Below are positions 6,861 to 46,963 of a stretch of 64,000 nt of DNA, piece by piece (positions within the stretch are counted from its first letter, which is position 1; each line of letters starts with the position of its first letter). The translations under genes were made by a program, and so were the position numbers. The notes under the pieces are model-generated. The model made no database searches, was not told the origin of the DNA, and saw nothing but the letters and a program-made list of their open reading frames with translations. The DNA comes from Anaerolineaceae bacterium (GTDB lineage: Bacteria > Chloroflexota > Anaerolineae > Anaerolineales > Anaerolineaceae). The DNA is taken from assembly GCA_034430215.1 (NCBI GenBank), contig DAOUFE010000013.1:5702-69701 (forward strand), given 5' to 3'.

Positions 6861-6943
6861 TACTTCACAGGGTGGCCAGTGAAAATCAAGAAAACTCGAG
6901 TGACCGTTTCTCCCTTTAATAAAACTACACATAAGGAAAAAAG

Positions 6944-27189: not shown

Positions 27190-27834
27190 TTATAGCTTCA
27201 GACAGGCATCAGCGCTCAACCAGAACAGACTCTCGCGGATCTCATGGCGCGACTGCCAGCCGCGATTATCCCATTCGGCACTGCTGAGATCATCCCCACC
27301 GTACAACACCTGCCCAAAAGACAGCCCACGGAACTGGGCAACTGCCATCATGCCAGCAGCTTCCATTTCCACCGTCAGGCAACCTTCCTCCTTGCGGTCA
27401 GCGATCTTGTTTGCAGTCTCACGATAAGGTGCATCGGTGGTCCAAGTCTTGCCCAACTGGTAAGGCACACCGCGCTCTTCAAGTGCGGATACCAGTGCCT
27501 GCACACCCGCCGGGTTTGCAGTGACTTCGCGAGATGGTGGCAGGTAGTGATGGCTCGCGCCTTCATCGCGCACAGCAGCGTTCACCACAATGAGATGACC
27601 TACTGCAATATCCTTCACCAGCACGCCGGCTCCGCCGCAAGCGATATACTTGCTGCAGCCAAGGGCGGTCACCTCTTCGAGCAAGCTGGCTGCCAAAGCT
27701 GAGCCAATACCGGGATGGAAAAACGCCAGCCGTTGCCCGTGATGTTCGATCTCGTACACCGGGTGCGGACCATCCTCCCAGCGGTTCTCGACCAGCGTTT
27801 GGGCATCATGCTCACTGATAACTTTCTCGAGCAC
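27190..27834 (-). CDS. nucleoside phosphorylase (PNP_UDP_1 family); true N-terminus probably further upstream
   Basis: GIGSALAASLLEE, DEGASHHY, TTDAPYRET and VEMEAAGM motifs. The track start is GTG at 27834, but the frame stays open and protein-like up to 27981. Confidence 0.75.
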   Translation of the reverse strand: MLEKVISEHDAQTLVENRWEDGPHPVYEIEHHGQRLAFFHPGIGSALAASLLEEVTALGCSKYIACGGAGVLVKDIAVGHLIVVNAAVRDEGASHHYLPPSREVTANPAGVQALVSALEERGVPYQLGKTWTTDAPYRETANKIADRKEEGCLTVEMEAAGMMAVAQFRGLSFGQVLYGGDDLSSAEWDNRGWQSRHEIRESLFWLSADACLKL

Positions 27835-28113
27835 TTCTTTGAAGAAGCAGATGACACAATGCTCAGGAAAGTCACGCGGTTTAATAATTTTGGATGGCTC
27901 GATCCGCGCTTCGGGGGTGGGGTCAAATTCAAGAATGGGGTAGGAAGGTGATGGTATAGGAATGGTTTCCTTTATAAGATTTCATCATGAATATCTAATT
28001 GTACAGGAATATATGGGGGAGACGGAATCGCGTTTTGATCCTGCAATTGTGTTGAATTAATGGTTTAGCTTATCATAAGGGGTAAAGAGGGAATTGATTC
28101 TTAAATAATTACT

Positions 28114-28197
28114 GTCATTCTGAGCGCAGCGAAGAATCTCGCTTTGATTTCTTTTTCGGGGCAAGATTCTTCGGTCGCTTCGCTTCCTCAGAATGAT
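28114..28197. repeat. family B hairpin repeat, gene-free copy
   Basis: Left arm gtcattctgagcgcagcgaagaatctcgc and right arm gcaagattcttcggtcgcttcgcttcctcagaatgat form an imperfect inverted repeat with a spacer of about 20 nt. Confidence 0.85.
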
Positions 28198-28252
28198 AAA
28201 TCCTGTAAGCCTACCAGCATTGCAACGAATATTCTTATCCCAATCGTTAAAC

Positions 28253-29029
28253 CTACCTCTTCACTACTCTGAGCACATTCGGCAGCGGTGAATCTGTCAC
28301 CCAGGAGCGCACCATCTGTGCGAACACCTCGGGGAACTGCAGCGCCCAGGCGTGCCCGCCCCCGGGCATGGAAACCCCATGTGCAGCGGTATATTTCTTC
28401 AACGGCTGCAGGGCGATCTCCCCATATAGTTTAGCAGCCCCGGGTTCTTTTTCCCCCACACATACCAGCAGCGGGCTGGTAACCTTTTCTGGAGCTGTAA
28501 AACCGGTCAATTCGGTATAAATCGGTTTGAGGAATTCCATCTGGTTGCTGGCAAGAATATCGTCGTGCAGAAGATCGTAATATTTATCCGGGATGAGGTG
28601 CTGCTTTAACGTGCTCCGTACGATGGTCTCTGGTTTCATCCATTTCAGGATCCCGAACATCGGCAGGCTCATTTGCACCAGCCATTTTGGCAGCCGAGAA
28701 GAACAGCCTGACAGGATCACATGGTCAGCCACATCCGGGTCGAGCCGCAAGAGCGTCAACGCCACTGCTCCACCCAGCGAAAGAGAAACGATATGGGCTT
28801 TCCCATGCGATGTTTTTTCCCGGATGATCTCTGCCACTGCCTGCGCCGACCCTTCGAGGGTGAAGGGAACATCCTGGCTCTTTCCATGCCCCGGCAAGTC
28901 GGGTGCCAGGCAGTAAAAATCGGGTAACTGCTCGATCACTGGCAACCATGAGGAATGGCTCAATCCACCACCATGAAGAAACACGATAGCGGGAGTAGAA
29001 GGATTGCCTTGTTCGTAGGTGTAGATCAT
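28253..29029 (-). CDS. alpha/beta hydrolase
   Basis: VFLHGGGLSHSSW oxyanion region and nucleophile elbow VSLSLGG. Length is 258 aa. Confidence 0.8.
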   Translation of the reverse strand: MIYTYEQGNPSTPAIVFLHGGGLSHSSWLPVIEQLPDFYCLAPDLPGHGKSQDVPFTLEGSAQAVAEIIREKTSHGKAHIVSLSLGGAVALTLLRLDPDVADHVILSGCSSRLPKWLVQMSLPMFGILKWMKPETIVRSTLKQHLIPDKYYDLLHDDILASNQMEFLKPIYTELTGFTAPEKVTSPLLVCVGEKEPGAAKLYGEIALQPLKKYTAAHGVSMPGGGHAWALQFPEVFAQMVRSWVTDSPLPNVLRVVKR

Positions 29030-29058
29030 TGTTTCCTCTTTCTATGACCTGCCAGGGG

Positions 29059-29697
29059 TTATTTTCCCGTTGCAACAAGAACAGTTTCCGGATGATGAAA
29101 ATATTCCTGCGCAATCTCGTAATACCTGCCGGCGTGCAACCCATCCATGAGAGCATGGTGACCCTGCACACCCAGGGGCATCTTGATCCGTTCCCCTTCT
29201 TCAAAATACTTTCCCCAGGCGATGCGCGGCACCGAATCCGAAGGGTCCATTCGCATGGGATGCATGAAGCCTGTAAAAGATACCCACGGCACAACGGTCA
29301 TGAAGAGCAGATCATCCCGATCCTTATCTTCTTCTGAAAGTCGGGGGCGCTGTTGCACATCAGCAATCTTGATGGCAGATTCACGTGCAAAGGTTGCGAA
29401 ATCATTGACATACTGCAAAGAACAAAAGCTGAATACGCCATCATTTCCCATGATGGTCGAGGAAGGGTGCACAATATCATGTTCGACCACTACATCACCA
29501 CGAATGCGGTAGCGGAATTCGGGGATTCGGTTGGCTGTACGGGCAAGCAAGTAAACAACAGCGATGTGAAAAGAAATGCCTGTCTTTTTCACATATTCGC
29601 GGAATGCAGTTATCTCGACATTAGCGCACAGGCTGAATTGCGGGTATTCATACTTTCTGAATAATTCAAAATGCTCGCGCCTGGGCCAGGTTTGCAT
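29059..29697 (-). CDS. chloramphenicol acetyltransferase (CAT) family protein
   Basis: WPRREHFELF, VVPWVSFTGF and MPLGVQGHHALMDGLH (catalytic His context) parallel classical CAT proteins. Length is 212 aa. Confidence 0.8.
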   Translation of the reverse strand: MQTWPRREHFELFRKYEYPQFSLCANVEITAFREYVKKTGISFHIAVVYLLARTANRIPEFRYRIRGDVVVEHDIVHPSSTIMGNDGVFSFCSLQYVNDFATFARESAIKIADVQQRPRLSEEDKDRDDLLFMTVVPWVSFTGFMHPMRMDPSDSVPRIAWGKYFEEGERIKMPLGVQGHHALMDGLHAGRYYEIAQEYFHHPETVLVATGK

Positions 29698-30034
29698 ATC
29701 AATGGTGTGGATGGTTCACCTCCAGAAGATCTCAGTTCCAGACATAATTGTACAGCATCACAAGCCAGAGAGGCGGCTAAAAAATTATTATTATTCTAAA
29801 TATAGTGAATTATCTTATAAAAATGTCAATGAAATAGATATTTAAATATCTCAATAGCTTTGCATTTGGTACATTGTCAATAATTGCGTTCCTTCAGATT
29901 GGTGATAGACGACAAACGCCCTCGAAAATGCCATCGAGTAATTCTAATTTATATTCACATCTACTTCTATTGCATCGGGTTAGGTTGTGGATTGATCCGT
30001 TAAAGATTCTGAAAGACACTGCGTTTGGCGCATC

Positions 30035-30087
30035 GTCATTCTGAGCGTAGCGAAGAATCTCGCCTTGTCTCTTGTACACAAGATTCT
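30035..30087. repeat. family B repeat, left arm plus start of a degenerate right arm
   Basis: gtcattctgagcgtagcgaagaatctcgcc differs at about 2 positions from the 28114 copy. It is followed by caagattct and then diverges. Confidence 0.8.
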
Positions 30088-30291
30088 AACCAGTACTGCT
30101 TCAGGTGTTGCGTCGAGTGCTGCACATCGTCAATGACAGTATATGCAACTGTTTCTGCAACAGTGGCATAACATATTACACCAAACGCGTAAAAACGTGA
30201 TTCCACGTATCGATTTACTCCAATTAATTATTAACCCTTGCATTGACTATTCATCTATAATTATTTCGTCACTAAGCCAAGGAAGTTCTCG

Positions 30292-30582
30292 ATGAAGAAA
30301 TATTACACCTACATTATGGCGAGCCCTTCGAAAACCCTGTATGTTGGTGTAACAAGTGATATTTTTCGAAGAGTTTTACAGCATAAAGAGAAGCAAATCC
30401 AAGGATTTACACAAAAGTATAACATTACAAGGTTAGTTTACTTTGAAGTAACTACTTCAATCAATGAAGCGATCATACGAGAAAAAGAAATCAAGGGTTG
30501 GTTGAGAAAAAAGAAAATTGCCTTGATTGAAAGTATCAATCGTGATTGGGTGGATTTAAGTAATGATTGGTATGATAAGTAA
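30292..30582 (+). CDS. GIY-YIG nuclease family protein (small, UPF0213-like)
   Basis: YYTYIMASPSKTLYVGVTSDIFRRVLQHK ... REKEIKGW carries the GIY/YIG, Arg and Glu positions. AAGGAAG RBS lies 7 nt upstream. Confidence 0.85.
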   Translation: MKKYYTYIMASPSKTLYVGVTSDIFRRVLQHKEKQIQGFTQKYNITRLVYFEVTTSINEAIIREKEIKGWLRKKKIALIESINRDWVDLSNDWYDK

Positions 30583-30632
30583 ATTTCACAAGAGAAAATA
30601 GTCGATTTAATTTTATGGGTACAAACCTCAAT

Positions 30633-30671
30633 GCAAGATTCTTCAGTCGCTGCGCTCCTTCAGAATGACAA
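30633..30671. repeat. family B repeat, right arm
   Basis: gcaagattcttcagtcgctgcgctccttcagaatgacaa is about 85 percent identical by eye to the right arm at 28160-28197. Confidence 0.8.
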
Positions 30672-30867
30672 TCCTATGAGCATAGAATCTGCAGGCATTT
30701 TAGAAAACACTAAATTCGGCTCCAACCTAATGCTATTATTCAAGACAAGTTCATTCGGAGGTCTCTGAACTCCGAAATGACACCTTTTCTATTATTCTTA
30801 ACAGATCGAAACAAATGCTCTCCATCACATCGATTATCCAAATCCCAACGCGCTATAATGATATTGT

Positions 30868-31929
30868 ATGAACATGCAAACAGTTGCTGAAATGCTGGAT
30901 AAATTCACCGCTCCAGGTGAACTTTGTCGTCCATTAGAGGATGGTAAAGTGCAATGCCATGCCTGCGCTCATCGCTGCGTCATCAAACCCGGCGGGCGCG
31001 GCATTTGCCAGGTACGCAGCAATCAAGGGGGTGAACTGCGTGTGCCGTGGGGGTATGTGTCTGGTCTTTATCCCGACCCGGTGGAGAAGAAACCATTCAA
31101 TCACTTGCTGCCGGGTAGTCTTGCGCTCACATTCGGCATGCTGGGGTGTAATTTTCACTGTGATTTCTGCCAAAACTGGGTTACCAGCCAGACACTGCGC
31201 GATCCGGCTGCCAGCTACGGCGCAGAATACATTCAGCGAATTTCGCCAGAACAGGTGGTACAGGTTGCAAAACGGGATGGCTGCGGTCTGGTTGTGTCTT
31301 CATACAACGAGCCTTTGATCACCAGTGAATGGGCAGTTGCGATCTTCAAGCAGGCAAAAGCTGCCGGGTTGCGTTGCGCGTATGTTTCTAACGGACACGC
31401 CACCCCAGAGGTACTGGAATTTCTTGCTCCTTACCTCACTGCGTACAAAATTGATTTAAAGACGATGCAAGCAAGTCAGTACCGGCAGTGCGGTGGCAAG
31501 CTGGAATCGGTTTTGGAGACCATTCAGATGGCGCATAAGATCGGGCTGTGGGTAGAAGTAGTCACCCTGGTGATCCCTGGTTTCAATGACAGCACACAGG
31601 AGCTTTGGGACACATCCCGTTTCATCACATCGGTATCGCGCGACATCCCCTGGCATGTTACCGCTTATCATCCTGACTATAAACACGATGCACCTCCTAC
31701 CAGCGCAAAGAAGCTGCAGGAAGCTGCTGAAATTGGGCAGGAAGCCGGATTGAAATTTGTTTATGCGGGTAATCTGCCTGGGAGAGTGGGATCGCTGGAG
31801 GATACCCACTGCCCCAACTGTTTGAAAGTGCTGGTCAAGCGTCGGGGTTATTATGTCATTGAAAATCATCTCAAAGATGAAAATACCTGTCCATACTGTG
31901 GCACCGTGATCGCCGGAGTTTGGCAATAA
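30868..31929 (+). CDS. AmmeMemoRadiSam-system-type radical SAM enzyme
   Basis: CNFHCDFCQNW (CX3CX2C) cluster, an N-terminal Cys-rich region (CHACAHRC ... GRGICQVR), and YPDPVEKKPFNH typical of this subfamily. Confidence 0.75.
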   Translation: MNMQTVAEMLDKFTAPGELCRPLEDGKVQCHACAHRCVIKPGGRGICQVRSNQGGELRVPWGYVSGLYPDPVEKKPFNHLLPGSLALTFGMLGCNFHCDFCQNWVTSQTLRDPAASYGAEYIQRISPEQVVQVAKRDGCGLVVSSYNEPLITSEWAVAIFKQAKAAGLRCAYVSNGHATPEVLEFLAPYLTAYKIDLKTMQASQYRQCGGKLESVLETIQMAHKIGLWVEVVTLVIPGFNDSTQELWDTSRFITSVSRDIPWHVTAYHPDYKHDAPPTSAKKLQEAAEIGQEAGLKFVYAGNLPGRVGSLEDTHCPNCLKVLVKRRGYYVIENHLKDENTCPYCGTVIAGVWQ

Positions 31930-31960
31930 GCGAAAAGAATGTTTCATGCGAGGTGAACTA

Positions 31961-32392
31961 ATGGAAAAGAAAAATGGTTTCACAAAAATACTTGCAATCA
32001 CAGGTACCGTATTGGTCTGGTTTCCAATCGTTGCAGCCATGATCCTTTCTATCGCTCACCTTATCAGGTCTGGTCAATTTCTTTTCGATTTTTTAATCCC
32101 AGCAGAAATCTTTTTTGTGATCCTGATCGGGGGAGCGCTGCTCATCTGGGCAGCAATACAGGCAAAAGCTTACCGGGCATGGATCATCTGGAGCCTGGTA
32201 GCAATGGTTGCGTGCCTGGTTGGCAGTCAGGGACTGGCAGTTGTTAGCGGGTTGGCATCAGGTGAGCGAGAAGCTGAAGGATTCTGGTGGATACTGGTAT
32301 TAAGTTTGATGGGTTTATTTGATCTCATCGTTTTATGGTTGGGAGTGTGCGGGATAAGATTTACCTGCCATTTATTTAAAAAGAGCGAATAA
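31961..32392 (+). CDS. small integral membrane protein (4 TM)
   Basis: Hydrophobic 143-aa ORF. The ATG at 31961 follows GAGGTG. The track start is 31946. Confidence 0.5.
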   Translation: MEKKNGFTKILAITGTVLVWFPIVAAMILSIAHLIRSGQFLFDFLIPAEIFFVILIGGALLIWAAIQAKAYRAWIIWSLVAMVACLVGSQGLAVVSGLASGEREAEGFWWILVLSLMGLFDLIVLWLGVCGIRFTCHLFKKSE

Positions 32393-32547
32393 GAATTTCT
32401 GCCAAAAATTATTCTTTTTCTACTGTTTTTATACTATGCTGAAAAGCGCGGGTAAAATCAACATCCTATCTTTTTCTTAAAGTAAGTGTAATTTACAGAT
32501 TAATGCTATACTTTTGACTACACAATAGCATATTTTAAGGGGGGATA

Positions 32548-33585
32548 ATGAAAGACCTTTACAGCATCCTTGACCTAGAGCCAACTGCAACAAACGAAGA
32601 AATAAAATATAATTATCATTTCTTACTGCACGCCTGGCATCCAGACAAATTTCCCGATGTATCGCAAAAATTAAAAGCTGAAGAAAAAATTCGAGATATT
32701 AATTATGCCTATGAAATTCTGATAAACCCAGAGTCAAGGCAAACTTACGATGTAGAAGCTGGTTATAAAAGTAGTAATAGCGTGCCTCCAAAGAAGTATA
32801 TTTTTACTGATGAATTTAAAGAAGAAATTCAATACTGTGATAGTTGCGGCTGCCGTGCAAAAACAAGGAAAGTAAAGTTTTATCAGAATATCGGTATGCT
32901 TATCGTTCGTCAGCATAAATCAGTAGAAGGAAATCTATGTAAAAATTGTATCAATTATTACTTTTGGGAATTCACAGGGATAACATTACTTTTCGGATGG
33001 TGGGGGGTAAAATCTTTTATAGTCACACCTTTTATAGTTATTTCAAATATATTTCACTTCATTTCCTCTATTGGGCTAAAAAAGCCTGATCAAATTTCAG
33101 AACGCAAACCTTCACCTTTTTGGATAATATCAACAATTGGTGTAATTGCAGCACTTATCATCTATGCTTATGTAATAATAGACCCATTTTCAGCATCTCC
33201 ATCCTATGTTGATACACCTACAAGTGAACCACAAACATCAATTGCAATTGTGCCCACAAAAACCAAATCTCCAACAAGGATACCAACTTCAACGAGACAA
33301 ACGCCCAGATGTTATGAATGGTCAGAAATCACAAAGAACATGATAGGGAAAAATGTATGTGTATATGGGAAAATCTATGATACACGGTTTGTAGGTACCA
33401 ATACATTTCAGGTTCTCTTCTCTAAAAATTCTTACGACTTTTTTATGGCAGCAGGTACCTATTACTATGAGGTAAATAGTGGAGATTGTGTTTATGCTGA
33501 AGGCGAAATTCTAAAATCAAGCGCTGGTGTGCCCTATATGGATATTGACGATGTGTTGTATGAATGCGAATCTTGGATGAATTAA
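32548..33585 (+). CDS. J-domain (DnaJ-like) membrane protein
   Basis: N-terminal J domain with an HPD motif (DLYSILDLEPTATNEEI ... LLHAWHPDKF), CxxC...CxxC, about 3 TM helices and a Thr/Pro/Ser linker. GGGGATAATG RBS context. Confidence 0.8.
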   Translation: MKDLYSILDLEPTATNEEIKYNYHFLLHAWHPDKFPDVSQKLKAEEKIRDINYAYEILINPESRQTYDVEAGYKSSNSVPPKKYIFTDEFKEEIQYCDSCGCRAKTRKVKFYQNIGMLIVRQHKSVEGNLCKNCINYYFWEFTGITLLFGWWGVKSFIVTPFIVISNIFHFISSIGLKKPDQISERKPSPFWIISTIGVIAALIIYAYVIIDPFSASPSYVDTPTSEPQTSIAIVPTKTKSPTRIPTSTRQTPRCYEWSEITKNMIGKNVCVYGKIYDTRFVGTNTFQVLFSKNSYDFFMAAGTYYYEVNSGDCVYAEGEILKSSAGVPYMDIDDVLYECESWMN

Positions 33586-33593
33586 TAAACCTT

Positions 33594-35303
33594 TTACGGG
33601 CTGGTAACTGATGGCTGTACCCAGGGGGTGGCGGTAGGCTCTGGCACCGGGAAGACCGTGATATCTTCCACGTAATCTGAAGCACCCGGGCATTCCTCTT
33701 CAAGTGAAATCTTCACGTGCTGCCAATCGAGAGGGTCATCGTCATCGTATGTTTCTTCCAGCGCGCCCGCCAGGCAGCCCGCTCCGGCATTGTAATTCAC
33801 CAGGGTGAACCGCCACAGGTCTTCATACCCAGCCAAAGTACGGGTATCTTCATGAGTGATGTTATAGATAAGCTGGTTCACCTGCTGGCAATTGGCAACC
33901 AGGGTGTTAGCAAAAACTTCTACGCTGAAGTTTGCCCGCGATAGATCGATCCCCATGGCACAGGTTGCGCATGACGCGTCGACCGTTTGTACCAATGCAC
34001 CACGCAGTAGATTTTGCGATTCTTCGCTCAGCTGTGCAAACCCCTCATCGCAGGTATCCTGGCTGAGAACCAAAGGGCAAAACTGAGTGTAGAAACCTTC
34101 GTTCCATAACAGCACTGTATCCGCGCCATATTCCGACATTTGCCCCAATCCAGCTTCCATATAAGTGGTAAAGATCCCCGGCCAGAACTGGCTTTCGCGG
34201 CTGAAAAGGTTTTTTAATAATTGAGCAGGAACACCTGTCTTATTTGAGACAGCAAGAATATCGTTGTTAAAGTCATTTTGCCATTCATCCAGTTTAGTGC
34301 GACTTGCCTGCACACCACATTCTGACGCCACCCCAGATCTGGTCAATCCCCCATCCGGGCATTTGGATACATCCACCATGCCCTGATTAATTAACCGTGC
34401 TGCAAGGTAATAATAAGAAACGCTGGATTGAAGATCAGCACTGTTGTATGGCGTCTGAAGCCAGGTTGGCAGCCCCGTGGCATCCGGAAACACCTGCCAT
34501 ATATCCGAGCAGCTTGCAGGTCTTTCGCCTACCCATTGACTGCTAAGCACATCTGCCAACCAAAGTTGATCATCCGTGCCATCTCCTTCGGGATCACTGA
34601 AATCACCCTGGGGTAATGCCCTCACCAGAGCGGTATATGTCTCGCTTGAATCCCCAAAAGAGGAATCCGCCCAAAACTCCACATCGATTCCCTGTTCCCC
34701 TGTGGGTTGCAATGGTAATTCGCAGACGCTGCCTGCACAGGAGAAAGGTTCGCCGTTCAGATAGCCATTGATAGTAATGATAGTTTCATTGGGCAGGGGC
34801 TCATTCCCTTCCAACACCAGGTAAGGTTGGCTGCTGCAGGTGTAAGTAGGTGGTGTGTATTCGCAACCTTTTAGCGACAGCCAGACATTTGGTAGAGGTA
34901 ATTCGACATCTACTTCTTTTGAACCGGTGCTTTCTCCAGTATAAATCAGGTAAACACCACTGCATTGTGAAACATCACCCCCGTTTTTCGCCTGTTCACA
35001 AGGAGGAGTATCGTACCAGTCTTCATATCGTTCTGCGCCACAGGCATCGAATATTTCACTACCTTTGGGCAGCCCTTCGTGCTCGATTTTAATATTACAG
35101 ACATATCGATTATTTTCCCAACGCACCATCCACCACTCATACAGGTGCGTTTCTACCGTAAAATGGGATATCCGTTTATGAATAGCGGGAGTTGGAGTGG
35201 GTGCATTATATAGATGAGATGCCTGAATACTGCGCGGAGAAAATACCCCCAGAGCAAGAAACGTAACCAGAATTGCCATCAGGGCAAAATTCCGCTTCTT
35301 CAA
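33594..35303 (-). CDS. secreted Cys-rich protein with lytic transglycosylase (SLT)-like domain
   Basis: Signal peptide; LLKNLFSRESQFWPG (catalytic ES context) and LVNYNAGAG resemble SLT domains. Confidence 0.5.
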   Translation of the reverse strand: MKKRNFALMAILVTFLALGVFSPRSIQASHLYNAPTPTPAIHKRISHFTVETHLYEWWMVRWENNRYVCNIKIEHEGLPKGSEIFDACGAERYEDWYDTPPCEQAKNGGDVSQCSGVYLIYTGESTGSKEVDVELPLPNVWLSLKGCEYTPPTYTCSSQPYLVLEGNEPLPNETIITINGYLNGEPFSCAGSVCELPLQPTGEQGIDVEFWADSSFGDSSETYTALVRALPQGDFSDPEGDGTDDQLWLADVLSSQWVGERPASCSDIWQVFPDATGLPTWLQTPYNSADLQSSVSYYYLAARLINQGMVDVSKCPDGGLTRSGVASECGVQASRTKLDEWQNDFNNDILAVSNKTGVPAQLLKNLFSRESQFWPGIFTTYMEAGLGQMSEYGADTVLLWNEGFYTQFCPLVLSQDTCDEGFAQLSEESQNLLRGALVQTVDASCATCAMGIDLSRANFSVEVFANTLVANCQQVNQLIYNITHEDTRTLAGYEDLWRFTLVNYNAGAGCLAGALEETYDDDDPLDWQHVKISLEEECPGASDYVEDITVFPVPEPTATPWVQPSVTSP

Positions 35304-35384
35304 TAATCATTCCCCAGAAATCAGTAGATGTCATATTAGTGTAGCAAAAACCCCGATGAGTCACAAGAGGAATTACCCCGTCTA

Positions 35385-37385
35385 TCACCCCTCGCCTTCG
35401 ATGCCGATTAAACAACGGGCATTGTTGATCTGATCTAATTCGCCAATGATGCCTATCCGATCCCCTGCTTCGAAGATGGTCATAGATTTAGGATTAGCTG
35501 TCAGTTCATTATTCCGCATTAAAGCCACCACTGAAGCGCCAGTATGTGCACGAATATTACTTTCAGCCAGGCTTTTTCCAATGATCGGACTGTCTTCTGG
35601 CAAGGATAACCAGGTAAGTTCTATCCCCCTTAATGCATGCAAAAGTTGATGAAGAGATTGGTGTTCTGCATTCGTGGTGATATTCGGTTCATAATTATCA
35701 TGGCGAACCGATTCAGCGTAATCATGTACTTCCTTTAAGGGAAATCCCAAACTGATCAGCGCATGGGAGATCAATTCCAAACCTTCTTCCAATTCAGCCT
35801 GTACCGTGTGCTGAGCACCTAATTTTGCCAGTACCCGTACTCCCTCCTGGCTTGAAGCCCGTGCAATGATGGACAGCCTGGGATTGAGATTCTTCGCAGT
35901 TGTGATGATCAGGCTGGATGCAGATTCGCTCTGTACTGTAATTACCAGGATACGCGCTTTTTCTAAAGATGCATGCATGAGAACTTCAGAATTTGCAGCA
36001 TCGCCAAACAAAGTGGGAATTTTTCGCTTGTTCAAAGCATCGATCTGTTCAGCATCTGCCTCGATCACCAGCATGGGGACTTCCAGAGATTCCAACACAT
36101 CCACCATCTGCTTCCCAACCCTGCCATATCCAATAATGACTGCGTGATTCATCAGCTTACTTTCATCAATCTCTGGCAACGGTTTTGAGGATTCCAGTTT
36201 TTTCCAAAAGCTGGGCATTCGCTGCAACAGCTTTTCCATCCTGGGTAAGAGCTTGAAAAGAAAAGGATTGATGGTGATGGAAATGAGCGATGCTGCCAGG
36301 ATAAGCGAGTATTGATCAGTGTTCAAGAGGTTAAGGGATACACCCGCCTGCCCAATGATGAATGAAAACTCACCAACCTGTGCCAAACCTACCGCGATCA
36401 CTAAAAATGTCCGTGCGGGACGTGGAAATAGCAACCCAAGGAGGAGAACAATCAGTGGTTTACCAACCAGAACGAGCAAGGACAGAGCAATCACATGGCT
36501 GACGTTTTGCCATAGAAAGGCGGGGTTGACCAGCATACCCACAGAGACAAAAAATAATACCGAAAACGCTTCACGGAATGAAAAGACATCCGCTCCCACC
36601 TGATAACTGAGGGGCGACTGGCTGATGATCGCGCCTGCCATAAAAGCGCCAAGCGCCAATGAAACCCCGAACAGTTCCGCTGCTCCCAATGCAGTACCTA
36701 AAGTGATGGCAAGGATTGCCAGGATGAACAATTCTCGCGAACGCGTACGGGCAATACGCTCCAGTGACCAGGGAAGCAGCCGTGTACCAAAAAAGAACAT
36801 GACTGCCACAAATGCAATCGCTTTCAAAAGGGTAATAATCAGGTTCTTCCAATCAAATCCACCTGCGTTGACCACCATAGAAGGCAAAAGCACAATGATC
36901 AAGACAGAAAGGATATCTTCCATGACCAGCCAACCCACTGCCGCCTGACCATGTGAACTGTTCAGCAGTGAATTATCCATCAACCCACGCAGGAGAACGA
37001 CGGTACTGGCAACTGAAACGGATAATCCCAGCACTATGCCGGCAGTCAGATTCCACCCCCAGAGCAGGCTCAACCCTGAACCCAGTAAAGTAGCAAGCAA
37101 GGTTTGAATCAACGCTCCTGGGATGGCAATATCTCGAACGTTCCCCAAATCTTTAAAAGAAAAATGAAGCCCTACACCAAACATCAAGAAGATAACACCC
37201 AGTTCTGCCAGTTGCTGGATGGTTTCAACATCTCCTTTAAAACCGGGTGTGAACGGACCAATAACGATACCAGCCAGCAAATAACCAACAATGGTTGGCA
37301 ATCCAATCCGGCGGGCAATGATCCCGCCAATGAATGCAACCACCAAAGCAATAGTAATGCTGATTAATAAAGGAACATCATGCAT
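35385..37385 (-). CDS. CPA2-family cation:proton antiporter with TrkA-N and TrkA-C domains (Kef/YbaL-like)
   Basis: Membrane domain of about 380 aa, then Rossmann VIIGYGRVGKQMV and a C-terminal RCK_C-like domain. Confidence 0.85.
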   Translation of the reverse strand: MHDVPLLISITIALVVAFIGGIIARRIGLPTIVGYLLAGIVIGPFTPGFKGDVETIQQLAELGVIFLMFGVGLHFSFKDLGNVRDIAIPGALIQTLLATLLGSGLSLLWGWNLTAGIVLGLSVSVASTVVLLRGLMDNSLLNSSHGQAAVGWLVMEDILSVLIIVLLPSMVVNAGGFDWKNLIITLLKAIAFVAVMFFFGTRLLPWSLERIARTRSRELFILAILAITLGTALGAAELFGVSLALGAFMAGAIISQSPLSYQVGADVFSFREAFSVLFFVSVGMLVNPAFLWQNVSHVIALSLLVLVGKPLIVLLLGLLFPRPARTFLVIAVGLAQVGEFSFIIGQAGVSLNLLNTDQYSLILAASLISITINPFLFKLLPRMEKLLQRMPSFWKKLESSKPLPEIDESKLMNHAVIIGYGRVGKQMVDVLESLEVPMLVIEADAEQIDALNKRKIPTLFGDAANSEVLMHASLEKARILVITVQSESASSLIITTAKNLNPRLSIIARASSQEGVRVLAKLGAQHTVQAELEEGLELISHALISLGFPLKEVHDYAESVRHDNYEPNITTNAEHQSLHQLLHALRGIELTWLSLPEDSPIIGKSLAESNIRAHTGASVVALMRNNELTANPKSMTIFEAGDRIGIIGELDQINNARCLIGIEGEG

Positions 37386-37656
37386 GAGGATTCTTCCAAA
37401 ATATTTGATTAATAAGAATTCACAGTGCTTTAAAGAAGCGATCGGTAATGATTATGAAGCAGAAATTTCAAATCGAGTGAACGAACCATGTTCTGATTAA
37501 CATGTCTCCGATGTCATATTTCAGTAGCCAATCCATTTTCCCCGATCTGAAAGGCAAGAGCCACTTTCTAGTATTTAAAATGTAGTTTAACAAAAAATAC
37601 ACCCTGCAACAAGGGTATATAGAAAAACTAAAGAAATACTCATAATCCAGGGATGA

Positions 37657-38190
37657 CTATGTGGCTTTTTTTACTTTTCGAAGGATCGCGGACTGCACCA
37701 ACACACCAAAGAGGAAAATTGCCCCTGCTGCGGTCATCGCTGCTGCACCTTCCAGGTTGATGACTTGTACGATGATCATAGCGCCACTGAGTGATGAGAG
37801 CAATGTCAGCGCCCACCCAAATATGCGGGCTACCAGCAAGATACCAAGCAATCCAAACGCTACGATCAAAACCCATGACCAACTTCCAAGATTTAGATCG
37901 AGCAATCGGATCGCACTCAATGCAATATAGCCTCCGGCTGCAAAACCTGCCACCGACAATGCGACTTTCTGGATCAGCAGTGTAAGTGCCGCACCAATCA
38001 CGCCAATTCCCAGTGCGATCAGCATTTGTGTGGTACCACTCATTCCATCAAATAATTTATTAACAAGCAGTAATCCACCGATGAATCCCAATAATCCCAC
38101 CACCAGCCAATAGAGCTTTCTTCCAAAAAGCACCAGGGCAGAGCCTGTAAAAAGTAACGGAATAGTAAACATACCTGTTGCGTTCCTCAT
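37657..38190 (-). CDS. integral membrane protein (5-6 TM), function unknown
   Basis: 177-aa, Gly/Ala/Leu-rich hydrophobic ORF. Confidence 0.5.
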   Translation of the reverse strand: MRNATGMFTIPLLFTGSALVLFGRKLYWLVVGLLGFIGGLLLVNKLFDGMSGTTQMLIALGIGVIGAALTLLIQKVALSVAGFAAGGYIALSAIRLLDLNLGSWSWVLIVAFGLLGILLVARIFGWALTLLSSLSGAMIIVQVINLEGAAAMTAAGAIFLFGVLVQSAILRKVKKAT

Positions 38191-38258
38191 ATGAAAGACT
38201 TTATGAAGCAGTCTTTCTCTGAAGAAACGTTACAAGAATTATGCCGATTTATTTCTCG

Positions 38259-39542
38259 TCAGGGATTTGAAGTAGAAGTTCCTGTTTCACTGGGTGTAGG
38301 GGTGACAGTTTCGGTTTTTGTGAGGGTTGGTGTGTGAGTAATGGTGATCGTTCGGGTGAGCGTGATGGTTCTGGTACGGGTTATTGTACGTGTGAAAGTA
38401 GCGGTTCTGGTAGGAGTATCGGTGGGCGTGGGTGTATCAGTGGGCGTTGGAGATGTGGTCATTTCATGCACCAGCGTGGTTTCAATGACAGAAGGGGCTT
38501 CAGGCTGAAGCACAAAATCCACTGCCTGTAGCATGAGCGCATGAATCTCTTCTACATGGGGCAGAAATACTTCGGTTATTGGTCGATCGGTGATCTGAAA
38601 CCTCTCCATTTCAACTTCTCCCAGGGTAAAGCTACCAATCCGGTGAGGCCCACCCAACTTCAGGGCGAATGGGATAAGGGCTGTCAGGTCTTCCAGGAAA
38701 AGGTCACTTTCCACCATCTCGTGAAATTCAGGCACCCATTCAGGCAAATTCACCAGATTTCCCCCGCTGATCAACCGAATAATGATATTCTTCATGACTT
38801 GTAACTGTCGCTCGTTGCGCGATATTTCATCCATTCCCTGGCGATAGCGAATGTAGCATAACACCTGACTTGGAGAGAGATGTTGCATGCCGGGATTCAG
38901 CTTTGGGCATGCACCTTTCATGGTCACCGGTACTTCCAGGGTAAGCCCATCCAATCGCTCAACCAGATTGGTGAAATCGTCGGTATGCACCAATACATAA
39001 TGCTCTGGGCGAATACCAAAAGTGTACTCTATGGATTGAGCAAGCAGATCAAATCCTCCCAGGCTGTATGCTATATTCAATCGCTGAATTGTGAAACCAG
39101 GAAGGTAGATAAATAAATCAGGAGGAAGGGTAATCAGACTGACTTTGGCTGTGATAGTAGAATAGATGACTAATACAATTGCATCTGTCCTGCCAGGGTA
39201 AGGTGCTTCTCGATCTGCGCCAAGGAGAACAAGAGTATGAACACCTTCTGGAAAACTGATCGATTCAGCAGGTGATGGCAGTGGGATGATGGGCGTTTCT
39301 GCGGGAGGGGGAAATTTTCCCCAGATCTCCGAAGTGGTAGTGGCTGTATCAACTTGGGGAGAGGATGTTGCCGAGGCGGTAACTTGCATTGGAGACGGGC
39401 TGAAAGCGGGTGCTTTATCGGAAGAAGGTGAACAACCCGAGATGAGAAGCGTGATAAAAGTGCCTATCACCACGAGAGAGCAAACAATCATAAAATAGTT
39501 CTTTTCCCGCAGCATCATTTCATTATACACATCTACAATCAT
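38259..39542 (-). CDS. LytR-CpsA-Psr (LCP) family protein with Thr-rich C-terminal tail
   Basis: LVLLGADREAPYPGRTDAIVLVIY LCP core and an N-terminal TM anchor. The ATG at 39542 is preferred, because the track start at 39668 would overlap the divergent gene. Confidence 0.75.
   Translation of the reverse strand: MIVDVYNEMMLREKNYFMIVCSLVVIGTFITLLISGCSPSSDKAPAFSPSPMQVTASATSSPQVDTATTTSEIWGKFPPPAETPIIPLPSPAESISFPEGVHTLVLLGADREAPYPGRTDAIVLVIYSTITAKVSLITLPPDLFIYLPGFTIQRLNIAYSLGGFDLLAQSIEYTFGIRPEHYVLVHTDDFTNLVERLDGLTLEVPVTMKGACPKLNPGMQHLSPSQVLCYIRYRQGMDEISRNERQLQVMKNIIIRLISGGNLVNLPEWVPEFHEMVESDLFLEDLTALIPFALKLGGPHRIGSFTLGEVEMERFQITDRPITEVFLPHVEEIHALMLQAVDFVLQPEAPSVIETTLVHEMTTSPTPTDTPTPTDTPTRTATFTRTITRTRTITLTRTITITHTPTLTKTETVTPTPSETGTSTSNP
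38262..38455 (-). repeat. coding low-complexity repeat (TPTPTDTPTPTDTPTRTATFTRTITRTRTITLTRTITITHTPTLTKTETVTPTP)
   Basis: Alternating Thr-X pattern over about 64 residues at the C-terminus of the LCP protein. Confidence 0.8.
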
Positions 39543-39661
39543 AGAAAAAGGTATCCTTCTACACCCAAGATAAGGATAAGGTAAGGATAATAGAAACCGT
39601 TTAAAATGATACAATTTCTTTAGTGAGTAAAAATTTATTCGAGGGAGGCCAACATCCCCAC

Positions 39662-40672
39662 ATGTCAAAAAAAATGACCATCGCTATACCTATGGCGGGT
39701 TATGGAACGCGTATGCGTCCTCATACCTGGAGTAAGCCAAAACCATTGGTGCCTATCGCAGGGAGAACGGTGCTTGATTATGTAATGGATCAGTTCAGCA
39801 GTCTGACCTCTGATTGGCAGGTGGAATATGTATTCATCATCAGCCCCAATGGTTGGGATATCCGCACACATATGGAAACCAACTACCCCAAGACAAAAGT
39901 CCATTATGTAGTGCAGGAAGAAATGCATGGCCAATCTCATGCCCTTTACCTGGCAAAAGAAAATCTAAAAGGGCCAATGTTGATGGCATTTTCGGACACG
40001 TTGATCGAGACAGACCTTACTTTTCTGAAAAATGAACCCTCTGATGGTGTTGCCTGGGTAAAGGAAGTACCTGACCCACGCCGGTTCGGTGCAGCAAAGG
40101 TCGATAAAAATGGTAAAGTAACCCGCCTGATCGAGAAACCACAAGACATCAAAGACAACCTGGTTGTAGTGGGGTTCTATTACTTCAAATCAGGTGAAGC
40201 TCTGATAAAAGCCATCGAAACACAAATGAAACAGAACGTTATGTTGAAGAATGAGTATTTTCTGGCAGATGCGATCAACATTCTGCTGGATGAAGGGCAA
40301 CAATTCCGCATTGAAAAAGTGGAAACATGGCTGGATGCCGGTATTCCTGATGCGGTGCTGGAGACAAACCGCTATTTACTGGAGCATAACCCTGCCCAAA
40401 CTGATATGCCAGATCACCCCTGGGCTTCGATCATTCCACCGGTATACATTCATCCCCAGGCTGAGATCAGTGCATCCGTGATTGGTCCCCACGTTTCCAT
40501 TGGTGCAGGATGCAAGATCCATGATGCGATCATCAGGGATAGTATTTTAGATGATGATTGTAGTGTTAAAAGCGTTGTAATGGAGCACAGTCTGGTTGGA
40601 AGGCATGTTAAATTGAAAGGGAAAGCCAGTAAGTGGAATCTTGGAGATAACACAGAGTGGGAGACGGAATAG
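39662..40672 (+). CDS. sugar-phosphate nucleotidyltransferase with C-terminal left-handed beta-helix
   Basis: IPMAGYGTRMRP (GxGTRxxP) signature. The C-terminal hexapeptide-like region includes IGPHVSIGAGCKIHDAIIRDSIL. Confidence 0.8.
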   Translation: MSKKMTIAIPMAGYGTRMRPHTWSKPKPLVPIAGRTVLDYVMDQFSSLTSDWQVEYVFIISPNGWDIRTHMETNYPKTKVHYVVQEEMHGQSHALYLAKENLKGPMLMAFSDTLIETDLTFLKNEPSDGVAWVKEVPDPRRFGAAKVDKNGKVTRLIEKPQDIKDNLVVVGFYYFKSGEALIKAIETQMKQNVMLKNEYFLADAINILLDEGQQFRIEKVETWLDAGIPDAVLETNRYLLEHNPAQTDMPDHPWASIIPPVYIHPQAEISASVIGPHVSIGAGCKIHDAIIRDSILDDDCSVKSVVMEHSLVGRHVKLKGKASKWNLGDNTEWETE

Positions 40673-40875
40673 TCGTTTCGGTGCGCTGCCATTCAGGGTA
40701 TACCTATGCCGAACGTCCATTGCAGGTTCTTCTCGAAGGGGAATGGCACAATATAACAAAAATACTGAATGAATGGCGTACGCCACAAGAAAGAGCATTT
40801 CATGTAATGTGCGATAACAATCAAGAATTCGTTCTAAAATTCAATGAAAAAACAGAGGAGTGGATCAAGGAATGA
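40657..40875 (+). CDS. small conserved-looking hypothetical protein (72 aa)
   Basis: The GTG start overlaps the upstream stop by 16 nt. Its TGA overlaps the ATG of the next gene (ATGA at 40872-40875). The composition looks protein-like. Confidence 0.5.
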   Translation: MGDGIVVSVRCHSGYTYAERPLQVLLEGEWHNITKILNEWRTPQERAFHVMCDNNQEFVLKFNEKTEEWIKE

Positions 40876-42032
40876 AGGAATCTTATCTCGCTGAACGTAT
40901 TATTCACTTAAAACCATCTGGAATTCGGAAATATTTTGATATTTCTGCCACAATTGAAGATGTGATCTCGCTGGGGATCGGTGAACCTGATTTCACTACA
41001 CCGCAGCCAATTCTTGATGAAGGTATACGCTCGTTACAGCGCGGAGAAACCCATTACACTGCCAATTCTGGCATCATCGAATTACGCCGTGCGCTGGTTG
41101 CCCACCTGGATCAAAAATACCATGTGACGTATGACCCCACCAATGAGGTTGTGATCACCGTAGGTGGCTCTGAAGCGCTCTTTCTTTCTTTATGTGCAAT
41201 CCTCAACCCGGGGGAAGAAGTCATCATCCCCACCCCTTGTTTTGTGTCATACCAGGCAGATGTTGAGCTGGCTGGTGGTAAAGTAATTGAAATTCCCAGT
41301 CGCATGGAAGATGGATTTGCCCTGGTTCCCGAGAATATCGAGAAAGCTATCACCCCAAAAACGAAAGCGATTTTTATCGGGTACCCCTGCAATCCTACGG
41401 GTGCAGTTGCCAGCCGTGAAACCTTGCTGGAGGTTGCCCGAATTGCAGAGAAGTATGATCTGATCGTTATATCGGATGAAATTTACGACCGTCTGGTTTA
41501 TGATCACATTCATGTTTGCTTCCCCAGCCTGCCTGGAATGAAAGAACGAACGATCTTATTGGGCGGTTTCTCTAAAGACTATGCCATGACAGGCTGGCGT
41601 GTAGGATATGCCTGTGCTCCGAGAGGTGTTATTGAAGGAATGTTGCGTATCCATCAGTATTTGATCATGTCTGCCCCCTCTACAGCGCAGGCTGGTGCTT
41701 TGCAGGCTCTGCGGGTTGGTGAAGAGTATGTTATGGAAATGGTCGAAGAATATGATCGCCGCCGGAAATTAATTGTCAATGGTTTCAACCAGTTGGGATT
41801 GCCCACCATTGAGCCAAAAGGGGCTTTTTATTGCTTTCCTAAAGTGGGCGTGACCGGATTGGATGATGAGACCTTCTGTACGCGATTGCTTCATGAGCAG
41901 CATGTGGCAATGATCCCAGGTCATAATTTTGGCGCTGGAGGTGAAGGCTTTGCCCGGGCTTCGTATGCAACGGCGTATGAAAAAATCGAAGAGGCTCTGG
42001 CGAGGATAGAGAAGTTCTTGAAAACACTATAG
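40872..42032 (+). CDS. class I/II PLP aminotransferase (aspartate aminotransferase-like)
   Basis: GEPDF, the NPTG context and FSKDYAMTGWRVGY (PLP lysine). GAGGAG RBS lies 11 nt upstream of the ATG at 40872. Confidence 0.85.
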   Translation: MKESYLAERIIHLKPSGIRKYFDISATIEDVISLGIGEPDFTTPQPILDEGIRSLQRGETHYTANSGIIELRRALVAHLDQKYHVTYDPTNEVVITVGGSEALFLSLCAILNPGEEVIIPTPCFVSYQADVELAGGKVIEIPSRMEDGFALVPENIEKAITPKTKAIFIGYPCNPTGAVASRETLLEVARIAEKYDLIVISDEIYDRLVYDHIHVCFPSLPGMKERTILLGGFSKDYAMTGWRVGYACAPRGVIEGMLRIHQYLIMSAPSTAQAGALQALRVGEEYVMEMVEEYDRRRKLIVNGFNQLGLPTIEPKGAFYCFPKVGVTGLDDETFCTRLLHEQHVAMIPGHNFGAGGEGFARASYATAYEKIEEALARIEKFLKTL

Positions 42033-42047
42033 GTTTTTAATGTATAA

Positions 42048-42087
42048 CCCACCGTTATTATTATGAAATAATGACGGTGGGTTTTCT
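42048..42087 (+). terminator. intrinsic terminator
   Basis: Stem cccaccgttatta / taatgacggtggg followed by ttttct. It begins 16 nt after the aminotransferase stop. Confidence 0.75.
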
Positions 42088-42242
42088 ATTGGGGGAATTC
42101 GTATGGTATGTTCTATCAGGTGGGCATTCCAAAGCAATAACCAATACGAAGAAAGCTTCATGATTTTCGTGACTTTTGTGTTTTTAGCGGTTAAATAATT
42201 ATTGAGTCCATCACCAATTCCAAAAATTGTGACAAATTTCTA

Positions 42243-42270
42243 TTGACAGAATCTCAAATCTGCGTAGAAT
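42243..42270 (+). promoter_or_regulatory. sigma70-type promoter of the pyrimidine operon
   Basis: TTGACA (42243-42248), a 16-nt spacer, then TAGAAT (42265-42270). Confidence 0.6.
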
Positions 42271-42362
42271 TGTTTCGATATGTGTGCGAGAATTGTGAGC
42301 AAAAAATTTATTCCACCTGCCCGAAGCAAAGAGTCTTCTGGCGTTACCAATGTTTTGTTAAC

Positions 42363-42391
42363 AGAGAGCCTTTTATAGGCTCTCTTTTTTT
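42363..42391 (+). terminator. leader (attenuator) terminator upstream of pyrC
   Basis: 8-bp stem agagagcc / ggctctct with a 7-nt loop, followed by a T6-7 run. It ends 16 nt before the pyrC ATG, inside the predicted leader of about 130 nt. Confidence 0.6.
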
Positions 42392-42407
42392 GCCTGTTTA
42401 CGGAAGG

Positions 42408-43490
42408 ATGATGAAAACTCTTACTCTCCCCGGACTGATAGACCCACACGTTCACATGCGCGAACCTGGCGGCACCCACAAAGAAGATTGGGATAGCGGT
42501 ACAGCTGCTGCCCTCGCTGGTGGTTTCACTACCATCCTTGCCATGCCCAATACAAATCCGCCTGTCACCGATACTGCAACTCTGACCTCAACTTTAACCA
42601 TCGCAAAAAGTAAAGCACGCTGCGATTTCGGACAATACCTGGGTGCAGGAGCGGATAACACCACCTCCGTTTCAGCCATTGCCTCGTACAGCGCAGGGTT
42701 GAAAATGTACCTTGACCAGACTTACGGACCTTTACGGCTGGATGATATGACCGATTGGATGGCACATCTTCAAGCCTGGCCAAAAAACATGCCCGTTTGC
42801 GCACACTGCGAAGGAAAAACCCTGGCAGCTGTGATCCTGCTGGCAGAACTCACACAGCATCCGGTACACCTCTGCCATGTTTCACGCCGTGAAGAGATCC
42901 TGCTCATCAAGGCTGCGAAGCAAAAAGGTATACCCATCACCTGCGAAGTCACACCACATCATCTTTTCTTAAGCGAAGAGGATATACCGGATATTGGCAA
43001 CGGGCGCAGTGAAGTGCGCCCCCGATTGGCTACCAGGCAGGATGTGCAGGCACTCTGGGATAATTTAGATGTGATCGATTGTTTTGCCACCGATCATGCC
43101 CCCCACACATTGGCTGAAAAAGATAGTGAAACACCCCCACCCGGGTTCCCCGGACTTGAAACCTGCATTCCCCTGTTGCTCAATGCAGCTTCTCAAAACC
43201 GTTTATCGATAGAAGATATCATTCTGCGTTGCTATACCAATCCACGCCGCATTTTCGATATACCCGAACAACCTGAAACCTGGGTAGAAATTGACCCACA
43301 ATCAAAATACACCATCCAGGCCAGCAAAATGTACACCCGCTGCAAATGGACGCCTTATGAAGGTATGCAGGTGCAGGGCAGGGTAAAACGAGTTGTCTTG
43401 CGCAATCAGGTAGTTTATGAAGTTGGAAAAGTGCTGGCTAATCCTGGCACCGGTTGGAATGTCCGCCCTCCAATTCTTAATTTCACATAA
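42408..43490 (+). CDS. pyrC: dihydroorotase
   Basis: [15 protein letters not shown] and the ATDHAPH metal-ligand motif. GGAAGG RBS precedes the ATG at 42408. The track ORF start at 42243 is the promoter TTG. Confidence 0.85.
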
Positions 43491-43524
43491 TCTTAGTTCA
43501 ATCAATTTATCAAGGAGATTTATA

Positions 43525-44517
43525 ATGTCACCTCATACCCCAAAAACTGTACGCAAAAGCCCATATTTACCATTTGGCGATCAAAAAACAGCACCGTTTT
43601 ACGGCATGGATATCTTATCGGTTAAACAGTTCAAACGCAGCGACCTGGAATATATATTTGGTGTCGCACATGAAATGGCTGGCATGGTTCGCCGCGTAGG
43701 AACCTTTGACCTGTTGAAAGGAAAAATCCTGGCCAACCTGTTTTATGAACCTTCCACCCGTACCTCATCATCTTTCACCGCTGCTATGGAACGGCTGGGT
43801 GGCAGCGTCATCCCGATCAATGAAGTACGTTACTCTTCAGTATCGAAAGGCGAATCACTTCCCGATACCATCCGTACGCTGGAAGCCTATACAGATGTGA
43901 TTGTGCTGCGTCATCCAGAAATAGGTTCAGCAGCCTTGGCTGCTAAATATGCCCGTAAACCCATCATCAACGCGGGTGACGGAGCTGGTGAACACCCAAC
44001 CCAGGCTCTGCTCGATCTTTTCACCATTTTGGAAGAAATGAACCGGGTGGATGGGTTGACGATCACCATGGTAGGCGATCTGAAATACGGGCGTACGGTA
44101 CACTCCCTTGCACGCTTGTTGACGCTCTTCGATGTAAAGATCAACTACGTTTCGCCAGAAATTTTGCCGATGCCAGAAGAGGTCGTAAAAGAAGTAGAAG
44201 CAAAAGGCACCCCTCAAGCACATTACACCACATTGGAAGAAGCCCTGCCAGAAAGTGATGTGGTCTACGTAACCCGTGTACAAAAAGAACGCTTCACGGA
44301 TGAAAAAGAATACGAAAAAGTGAAGGGCAGTTATATCATCAGTCCCGAGACATTGAAGATCGCCAAAGATGACATGATCGTGATGCACCCCTTGCCACGT
44401 GTGGGCGAGATCAGTATGGAACTCGATGACGATCCACGCGCAGCTTATTTCCGTCAGGTTGAATACGGTCTTTATGTCCGTATGGCTTTACTGGCGATCG
44501 TTTTAGGAAAAGCATAG
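43525..44517 (+). CDS. pyrB: aspartate carbamoyltransferase catalytic subunit
   Basis: [11 protein letters not shown] (STRT), HPTQALLD and HPLPR motifs. AAGGAG RBS lies 8 nt upstream of the ATG at 43525. Confidence 0.9.
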
Positions 44518-44554
44518 TCAAATCTGTAAATCTACTAATCTACAGGAGGTTTTC

Positions 44555-45985: not shown

Positions 45986-46000
45986 AGAAACCAGGTAAAA

Positions 46001-46804: not shown

Positions 46805-46963
46805 TAATTTTAAAATATATAGGGTACGTTCTGAAAACTGACTGTACCCAATTTTTCGTCATTGCAAGCCTGTTTTTTGGCGAAGCAAATAAAGAAGGAG
46901 TACTCCTCTCGCCTGTTGTACCCTCACCATTTTGAAAAGCGAAAATTTGGAGAAAATCTGGCT

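Follow-up and report, generated by a model that had tools for sequence, protein, structure and literature searches.

The window, that is, the whole stretch of 64,000 nucleotides that was analysed here, carries at about 30.3 kb a small gene for a GIY-YIG nuclease, which has a chromosomal, intergenic setting and is arranged with short repeat units in the order unit(+), gene, unit(-) (Table 1). With the 96-aa translation, a Pfam search yielded the GIY-YIG family (PF01541, E = 1.6e-13) over residues 3 to 75 and no second family, which confirms the initial annotation that had placed a GIY-YIG open reading frame (ORF) of this length between two repeat arms. The NCBIfam search with the same protein gave no match. 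In an alignment of 16 homologues, including some that are flanked by the Neisseria NTS repeat (see below), Y7, Y17, G19, R27, H31, E64 and N83 do not vary. The search for homologues of like length returned more than 1,100, none with a more specific name than 'GIY-YIG nuclease family protein' or 'putative endonuclease'. Searches of the PDB by sequence and by profile retrieved only UPF0213 and UvrC domains and no Ssn structure. The genome from which the window is derived (G000) contains exactly one small GIY-YIG gene. Upstream of the ORF, the promoter-like TATAAT and the ribosome-binding site (RBS) that had been pointed out are indeed present; a consensus scan of this region detected no -35/-10 promoter pair. 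A small palindrome, CAACTGTT-TCTGC-AACAGTGG (window 30146-30166), marks the start of that part of the cassette which is common to locus L001 of the sister species; it is a perfect 8-bp stem in L001 and could be an operator or a terminator.

Table 1 Features of the nuclease locus and of the gene-free hairpin in window coordinates, and segments of the window that are aligned with locus L001 of the sister species by blastn
Feature	Position in window	Strand	Basis or remark	Position in L001	Identity
Aligned segment	25360-28011		blastn	2258-4920	82%
SRM-like unit, short type A, GTC-ATTCT-GAGCGCAGCGA-AGAAT-CTCGC; left arm of gene-free hairpin, site 1	28114-28142	+	Orthologous left flank in L001 and G001		
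SRM-like unit, longer type B (ATCATTCTGAGGAAGCGAAGCGACCGAAGAATC); right arm of gene-free hairpin	28165-28197	-	Compared with right arm of hairpin 3' of the gene in L001		32/32 (100%)
Aligned segment	28113-29029		blastn	6389-7289	82.6%
Aligned segment	29076-29760		blastn	8271-8955	91%
SRM-like unit, type A, 257 nt upstream of nuclease gene	30035-30063	+	Arm pattern and alignment		
Degenerate long-type unit, partner of the 30035 arm	30080-30137	-	Aligns with right arm of gene-free hairpin hp2 of L001		
Aligned segment (cassette)	30143-30576		blastn	5853-6285	84.8%
Conserved 5' part of cassette, common to L001; contains palindrome, TATAAT and RBS	30143-30291	+	Alignment with L001		
TATAAT	30256-30261		Upstream of GIY-YIG ORF		
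RBS, AAGGAAG	30279-30285		6 nt before ATG		
ssn-like gene, 96-aa single-domain GIY-YIG nuclease, catalytic residues intact	30292-30582	+	Pfam and alignment		
SRM-like unit, type B (GTCATTCTGAAGGAGCGCAGCGACTGAAGAATC), solo right arm, 55 nt after stop codon	30637-30669	-	Half-loop and arm homologous to L001	6426-6483	

The repeat units that accompany the gene are also found without it. At 28114-28199, the window contains a complete imperfect hairpin that encloses no gene. The pattern of its left arm, GTCATTCTGAGCGNAGCGAAGAATCT, occurs without mismatches at 28114 and 30035, which are the sole two occurrences in the 64-kb window, and none is expected by chance (100 shuffles). The identity between the two left arms (28114-28146 and 30035-30067) is 94% over 33 nt, and that between the right arms (28161-28199 and 30633-30671) is 87% over 39 nt. 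As single-stranded DNA (ssDNA), the region 28105-28205 folds with -19.6 kcal/mol (z = -4.06). Thus, the hairpin at 28.1 kb is real, and the near-identical arms on either side of the gene are present as they had initially been described. Each arm is in itself one oriented unit, GTC-ATTCT...AGAAT-C, in which GTC is followed by a 5-bp stem (ATTCT/AGAAT) around a GAG...CGA-rich interior and then by C. In the gene-free hairpin, a 25-nt unit of type A (+) is combined in inverted orientation with a 33-nt unit of type B (-), and the right arm reads (A/G)TC-ATTCT-GAGG...CGA-AGAAT-CTTGC on the other strand.

The left arm upstream of the gene has a partner of its own. According to the initial annotation, the right arm that follows it degenerates after 9 nt. 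It does start with 'caagattct', and its folding is lost (z = +0.25), but it continues as a diverged arm of the long type and ends in AATGAC at 30137. Since the 30035 arm has its own degenerate right arm, it does not form a single split hairpin with the arm at 30.6 kb. The alternative of two independent, complete hairpins, which had been named initially as speaking against one split element, applies in part.

When the 3.28-Mb assembly (47 contigs, 99.6% complete) was searched with the arm sequences by blastn-short, only these two loci were returned, and looser patterns revealed just three more divergent units in the whole assembly (C7:88300, C23:89747 and C27:31802). In total, the genome holds about eight units, which is a very low copy number. 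With so few units and a single gene, a tabulation of the arm copies within the genome is uninformative, and the association between repeat and nuclease was therefore tested across genomes. A permissive Rfam scan of 27500-31500 gave nothing at E <= 1, and no T-run terminators were detected. When single units were folded as ssDNA with the nearest-neighbour model, they were indistinguishable from shuffles (z about 0); covariation was therefore used instead.

For the comparison across genomes, the unit was defined in a generic way that is independent of its interior (GTC[AG]-X4, 5-55 nt, rc(X4)-TC). The definition was applied to 17 loci of relatives with Ssn homologues and to 80 metagenome loci encoding proteins of 60-68% identity. 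A unit lies within 400 nt of the gene in all 17 loci of the relatives, with a density of 5.4 units per kb up to 400 nt from the gene, 0.31 per kb further out and about 0.15 per kb genome-wide. Around the metagenome loci, the density is 6.7 per kb within 300 nt and 0.26 per kb further away, which corresponds to an enrichment of about 26-fold. A unit is located at most 300 nt upstream of the gene in 67 of 73 metagenome loci, downstream of it in 70 of 73 and on both sides in 59 of 66. The initial proposal that nuclease and repeat belong together is borne out by these counts. The units also show a bias in orientation relative to the gene. Upstream, the closest unit shares the strand of the gene (+) in 45 of 71 loci; downstream, it is on the opposite strand (-) in 50 of 74. 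The modal layout across homologous loci is unit(+)-gene-unit(-), as in the window.

The stems of the units covary. ATTCT is the dominant stem among the units of the window's clade. With the stem letters left free in the search, complementary YY/RR letters were found in 57 of 60 distinct units (27.6 expected), a count that is inflated by relatedness and still comprises three pair types, namely TT/AA, TC/GA and CC/GG. Units of the window's type also occur in two genomes in which no Ssn homologue was found, with nine units in G005 (97% complete) and three in G008 (95% complete); thus, either the repeats can outlast the gene or the gene is unassembled. The metagenome scan for nearer relatives yielded no protein above 68% identity.

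A nuclease of this kind and its repeat have recently been described in Neisseria. SsnA of Neisseria meningitidis is a 94-aa single-domain GIY-YIG protein (CDD cd10448); it binds the NTS hairpin CGTCATTCCCGCGMAVGCGGGAATCYRG exclusively in single-stranded form and cleaves a few nucleotides upstream of it (Chenal et al., Nat Commun 2025, PMC11893778). For SsnA, cutting depends most on the GTC that precedes the palindrome and binding most on the C that follows it, and the characterised Ssn family members do not cut double-stranded DNA (dsDNA) (PMC11893778). Homologous genes across phyla carry Ssn-related motifs (SRMs), of which at least one is present in 71% of the cases and one on both sides in 42% (PMC11893778). 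The protein of the window is likewise a single-domain GIY-YIG enzyme of about 95 aa. Its units share with the published ones the GTC start, the ATTC.../...GAAT stem, the C after it and a near-equal length; moreover, oriented units bracket the gene, and gene-free units occur elsewhere in the genome. In contrast to the published CCGCG...CGCGG, the interior of the window's units is GAG...CGAAG. The host also differs, being a Chloroflexota-like metagenome-assembled genome (MAG) with about eight units instead of hundreds. Furthermore, there is here comparative evidence for a cassette at different sites between congeners, whereas the activity of the enzyme is only presumed.

The published SRM search pattern, HGTCWYN(0-2)YYVSBRHN(0-5)WNVSBRGN(0-2)RNCYNB, has no match in the window and none in the 80 loci of the clade of 60-68% identity. 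The protein was assigned to the Ssn family by proxy, that is, by its continuity with homologues whose genes are flanked by the NTS or by SRMs that match the pattern. For instance, the units that flank the homologues of loci L013 and L017 (49-51% identity) match the published pattern. Locus L129 of a gammaproteobacterial MAG encodes a 52% identical protein (E = 1.3e-24) and has an exact NTS 8 nt before the start codon, and locus L128 of an Anaerolineales MAG encodes a homologue that is 44% identical to the window's protein. The latter two loci were obtained by scanning genome contigs for the exact NTS, as were loci of N. lactamica and N. mucosa. We consider it quite likely that the product of the ORF is a nuclease of the Ssn type, in which a lone GIY-YIG domain acts as a site-specific ssDNA endonuclease, and that the arms are its cognate SRMs. 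The idea that the nuclease targets the hairpin agrees with the published work, in which Ssn enzymes of the family recognise and cleave hairpins of this kind in single-stranded form (PMC11893778), and by analogy the same would apply to the protein of the window. The locus is a further case of the Ssn/SRM pairing described in 2025, with a variant repeat, and is otherwise ordinary for the family.

The Ssn/SRM system is thereby extended to a Chloroflexota-like lineage. Moreover, a large Ssn clade is bracketed by units of the type GTCATTCTGAG...CGAAGAATC, which have been overlooked by the published search pattern; thus, the published association of 71% is probably an underestimate. The clade could also be a source of new pairs of enzyme and site for ssDNA tools.

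The scans of the family led to some additional observations. The exact 28-nt consensus of the Neisseria NTS is present in at least 120 contigs (loci L047-L166), and the phyla among the matches listed include Proteobacteria, Dehalococcoidia, Planctomycetota, Nitrospirota, Gemmatimonadota and others. No small Ssn was found in the assemblies of N. lactamica NS19 and N. mucosa; the only matches were a 91-aa UPF0213 protein and GIY-YIG matches in long frames (388-637 aa). In a 72% identical homologue (P0005, loci L177-L184), the ORF reads into the downstream unit and the protein ends in the C-terminal tail ...DPSLRSG. Such tails encoded by the units probably explain why the annotated lengths of the family members differ.

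The comparison with related species revealed that the nuclease gene occupies two different sites. Site 1 is located between the genes for a nucleoside phosphorylase (PNP) and an alpha/beta-hydrolase, and site 2 between the genes for a chloramphenicol-acetyltransferase-like (CAT) protein and a radical-SAM protein. The window has its gene at site 2. The sister species has a 91% identical protein (P0002; loci L001-L004 in GCA_037975375.1, GCA_037975395.1 and two runs), and its gene is at site 1, where the window has the gene-free hairpin. In L001, a lone right arm of the long type lies 5' of the gene and a complete orthologue of the 28.1-kb hairpin 3' of it, with arms that are identical in 29 of 29 and 32 of 32 positions and a loop that differs. 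Window 30053-30142 is aligned with a gene-free long hairpin that follows the CAT gene in L001 and G006. The divergence of the cassette (84.8% identity) is like that of the flanking genes (82-91%), which argues against a separate import. In a third congener (G001, 99% complete), no small Ssn was found. Its site 1 carries two gene-free hairpins, of which the first has a left arm that is orthologous by position to the left arm in the window, and its site 2 is a 167-nt spacer devoid of any unit; elsewhere it is collinear with the window for 17 kb. A fourth congener (G003) has a 71% identical gene as A(+)-gene-B(-) among more than 20 units.

Thus, the presence/absence polymorphism that had been suggested as a check was found between congeners at both sites. 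Site 1 contains the gene in L001 but neither in the window nor in G001; site 2 contains it in the window and is free of repeats in G001. The view that the window holds filled and empty versions of one element is supported in so far as these sites are polymorphic; however, the hairpin is not filled in its loop, as the L001 hairpin is intact 3' of the gene. Alignments of filled and empty sites were obtained between the congeners, but the empty site of G001 gives no alignment with the flanks 29835-30034 and 30672-30828, so that neither a target-site duplication nor a sharp junction can be defined. A family-wide DNA search with the flanks of site 2 returned repeat arms only. As site 2 of G001 lacks units, those of the window would have arrived there together with the gene. 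The single hairpin at 28.1 kb looks like the fused outer arms of a two-hairpin site from which everything in between has been lost, and it is most likely the remainder at the former or alternative site of the cassette. As judged by these sequences, the cassette appears to have changed place or disappeared at sites marked by the repeat among members of a single genus. The same site pattern would result if the cassette had been duplicated in an ancestor and its copies then lost differentially. Identical proteins were found in one context each (P0005 across 19 contigs and P0003 across 15), and movement of the cassette, if it occurs, is rare. The three-state polymorphism in one genus lends some modest comparative support to the hypothesis of the authors of PMC11893778 that the repeat-gene-repeat module may behave like mobile DNA or drive rearrangements.

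The surroundings of site 2 have been rearranged as well. A 17-kb segment (window 29761-46846), which extends from the radical-SAM gene to a 267-aa ORF, is collinear in the window and G001 and is missing at the corresponding place in L001 (8956-9323) and G006 (C309). There, the CAT gene is joined via a strong gene-free hairpin (-35.6 kcal/mol, z = -6.6) to a 241-aa ORF and MacB/ABC genes. At window 46855-46888, just before the 241-aa ORF on the minus strand, lies a degenerate unit of another stem type (GTCATTGCAAGCC...GCGAAGCAA), the orthologue of which in L001 (about 9335-9373) is better preserved.

How could the nuclease and its repeats be involved in such changes? By analogy with the Neisseria enzyme, the protein would probably bind the unit when the DNA is single-stranded and folded or extruded, and the cut would be expected a few nucleotides 5' of GTC. 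In this lineage, the clusters of repeats appear to be points of recombination or rearrangement, which is seen as a pattern only. The anatomy of the locus, the association, the intact active site, the stem covariation and the site polymorphism were observed, whereas cleavage of ssDNA, the position of the cut and any causal part of the nuclease in the rearrangements are inferred. Two junctions, that of the cassette in the window (30138-30143) and that of the missing 17-kb segment in L001 and G006, follow closely on the GTC end of a unit read on the minus strand. Both junctions are where an Ssn cut would be expected, which is suggestive of a nuclease-linked rearrangement. It is conceivable, albeit unlikely, that unit(+)-ssn-unit(-) is a rarely moving element that makes use of ssDNA cuts by Ssn at its hairpins. 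In that case, the genus would record one relocation from the PNP/hydrolase site to the CAT/radical-SAM site together with nuclease-linked rearrangements.

Alternatively, the module could be an autonomous IS-like transposon, the nuclease of which cuts its own terminal hairpins, with the gene-free pairs being MITE-like derivatives and a single transposition having led from site 1 to site 2. Several observations are in line with this explanation: the gene is flanked by inverted terminal units in most loci, there are three states at two sites in one genus, units and gene seem to have arrived jointly at site 2, and the cassette has diverged to the same extent as the genome, which speaks for movement within the lineage and against import. 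Moreover, the resemblance of NTS-ssnA-NTS to an insertion sequence has been raised, as a hypothesis only, by the authors who described the system (PMC11893778). However, each genome has one copy of the gene, the identical proteins P0005 and P0003 are always in the same context, neither a target-site duplication nor a sharp junction is definable, and homologous recombination between the repeats accounts for the same patterns. To our knowledge, a strand-transfer activity has not been reported for GIY-YIG domains, which also counts against a transposon. We therefore give this explanation a rather small chance. The several copies per genome, or identical copies in different contexts, that characterise an IS or MITE family were not seen, with one small GIY-YIG gene in G000 and a single context for both P0005 and P0003.

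The resemblance to homing systems is likewise partial. The protein has the catalytic domain of I-TevI-type homing endonucleases, and as with these enzymes and MITEs there is a presence/absence polymorphism and a gene-carrying version beside gene-free inverted-repeat versions. Unlike I-TevI-type enzymes, the 96-aa protein consists of the domain only and has no DNA-binding domain, there is no intron or intein context, and the characterised Ssn family members leave dsDNA uncut; unlike that of MITEs, the copy number is very low here, and a target-site duplication could not be defined from the flanks. A classic homing-endonuclease or MITE family does not agree with a single-copy gene, a single-domain protein and one context per identical protein. 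It could be assumed in a literal sense that the cassette has been inserted, in a homing-like manner, into the loop of a hairpin, thereby separating the arms at 30035 and 30633, and that the 28.1-kb hairpin is an unoccupied target. Indeed, the order A(+)...gene...B(-) in the window and G003 mirrors the A(+)-loop-B(-) of the gene-free hairpin, and the arms are 87-94% identical. Yet the 30035 arm is paired with its own right arm (30080-30137), which is aligned with a gene-free hairpin of L001, and the L001 orthologue of the 28.1-kb hairpin lies beside the gene and not around it. Since the protein also lacks a DNA-binding domain of the kind present in homing GIY-YIG enzymes and its characterised relatives do not cut dsDNA (PMC11893778), a split hairpin is very unlikely. 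That the units are generic REP-like or terminator-like intergenic repeats that have functionally nothing to do with the nuclease gene would fit their occurrence far from any Ssn gene and in G005 and G008, and also the position of the 28.1-kb hairpin between gene ends that converge, a place that would suit a terminator, but it can be dismissed almost entirely given the 20- to 26-fold enrichment beside the gene in 97 independent loci, their orientation bias, the lack of detectable T-run terminators and the published binding and cleavage by family members (PMC11893778).

The relationship between repeat and nuclease is also reminiscent of REP/BIME sequences with their RAYTs, which are IS200/IS605-like Y1 transposases. 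In both cases, inverted hairpin pairs lie beside a gene that is present in one copy and the product of which acts on hairpins in ssDNA, and the relation appears 'domesticated'. However, the enzyme of the window is a GIY-YIG nuclease and not an HUH tyrosine transposase. Moreover, L001 has a putative RAYT with REPs of its own beside the ssn cassette, which is a separate system. The segment between the phosphorylase gene and the cassette (L001 4921-5765) contains a 183-aa ORF that by eye resembles a REP-associated tyrosine transposase and is assigned to no Pfam family. Its palindromic repeats, GGTGCGGTCGG...CCGACCGCACC, are inserted beside the cassette and truncate the upstream hairpin. In G001, a remnant of this repeat is present at the same place (L036 1100-1175) without the gene, and G000 has only a 66% similar copy on C36.

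Two further differences in gene content were observed in the neighbourhood of the sites. The 345-aa DnaJ-domain membrane ORF of the window (32548-33585, within 32317-33592) has no counterpart at the collinear position of G001. Between the hydrolase and CAT genes, L001 (7290-8270) carries a gene for a 180-aa protein similar to F420H2-dependent quinone reductases, which is absent from the corresponding place in the window (29030-29075).
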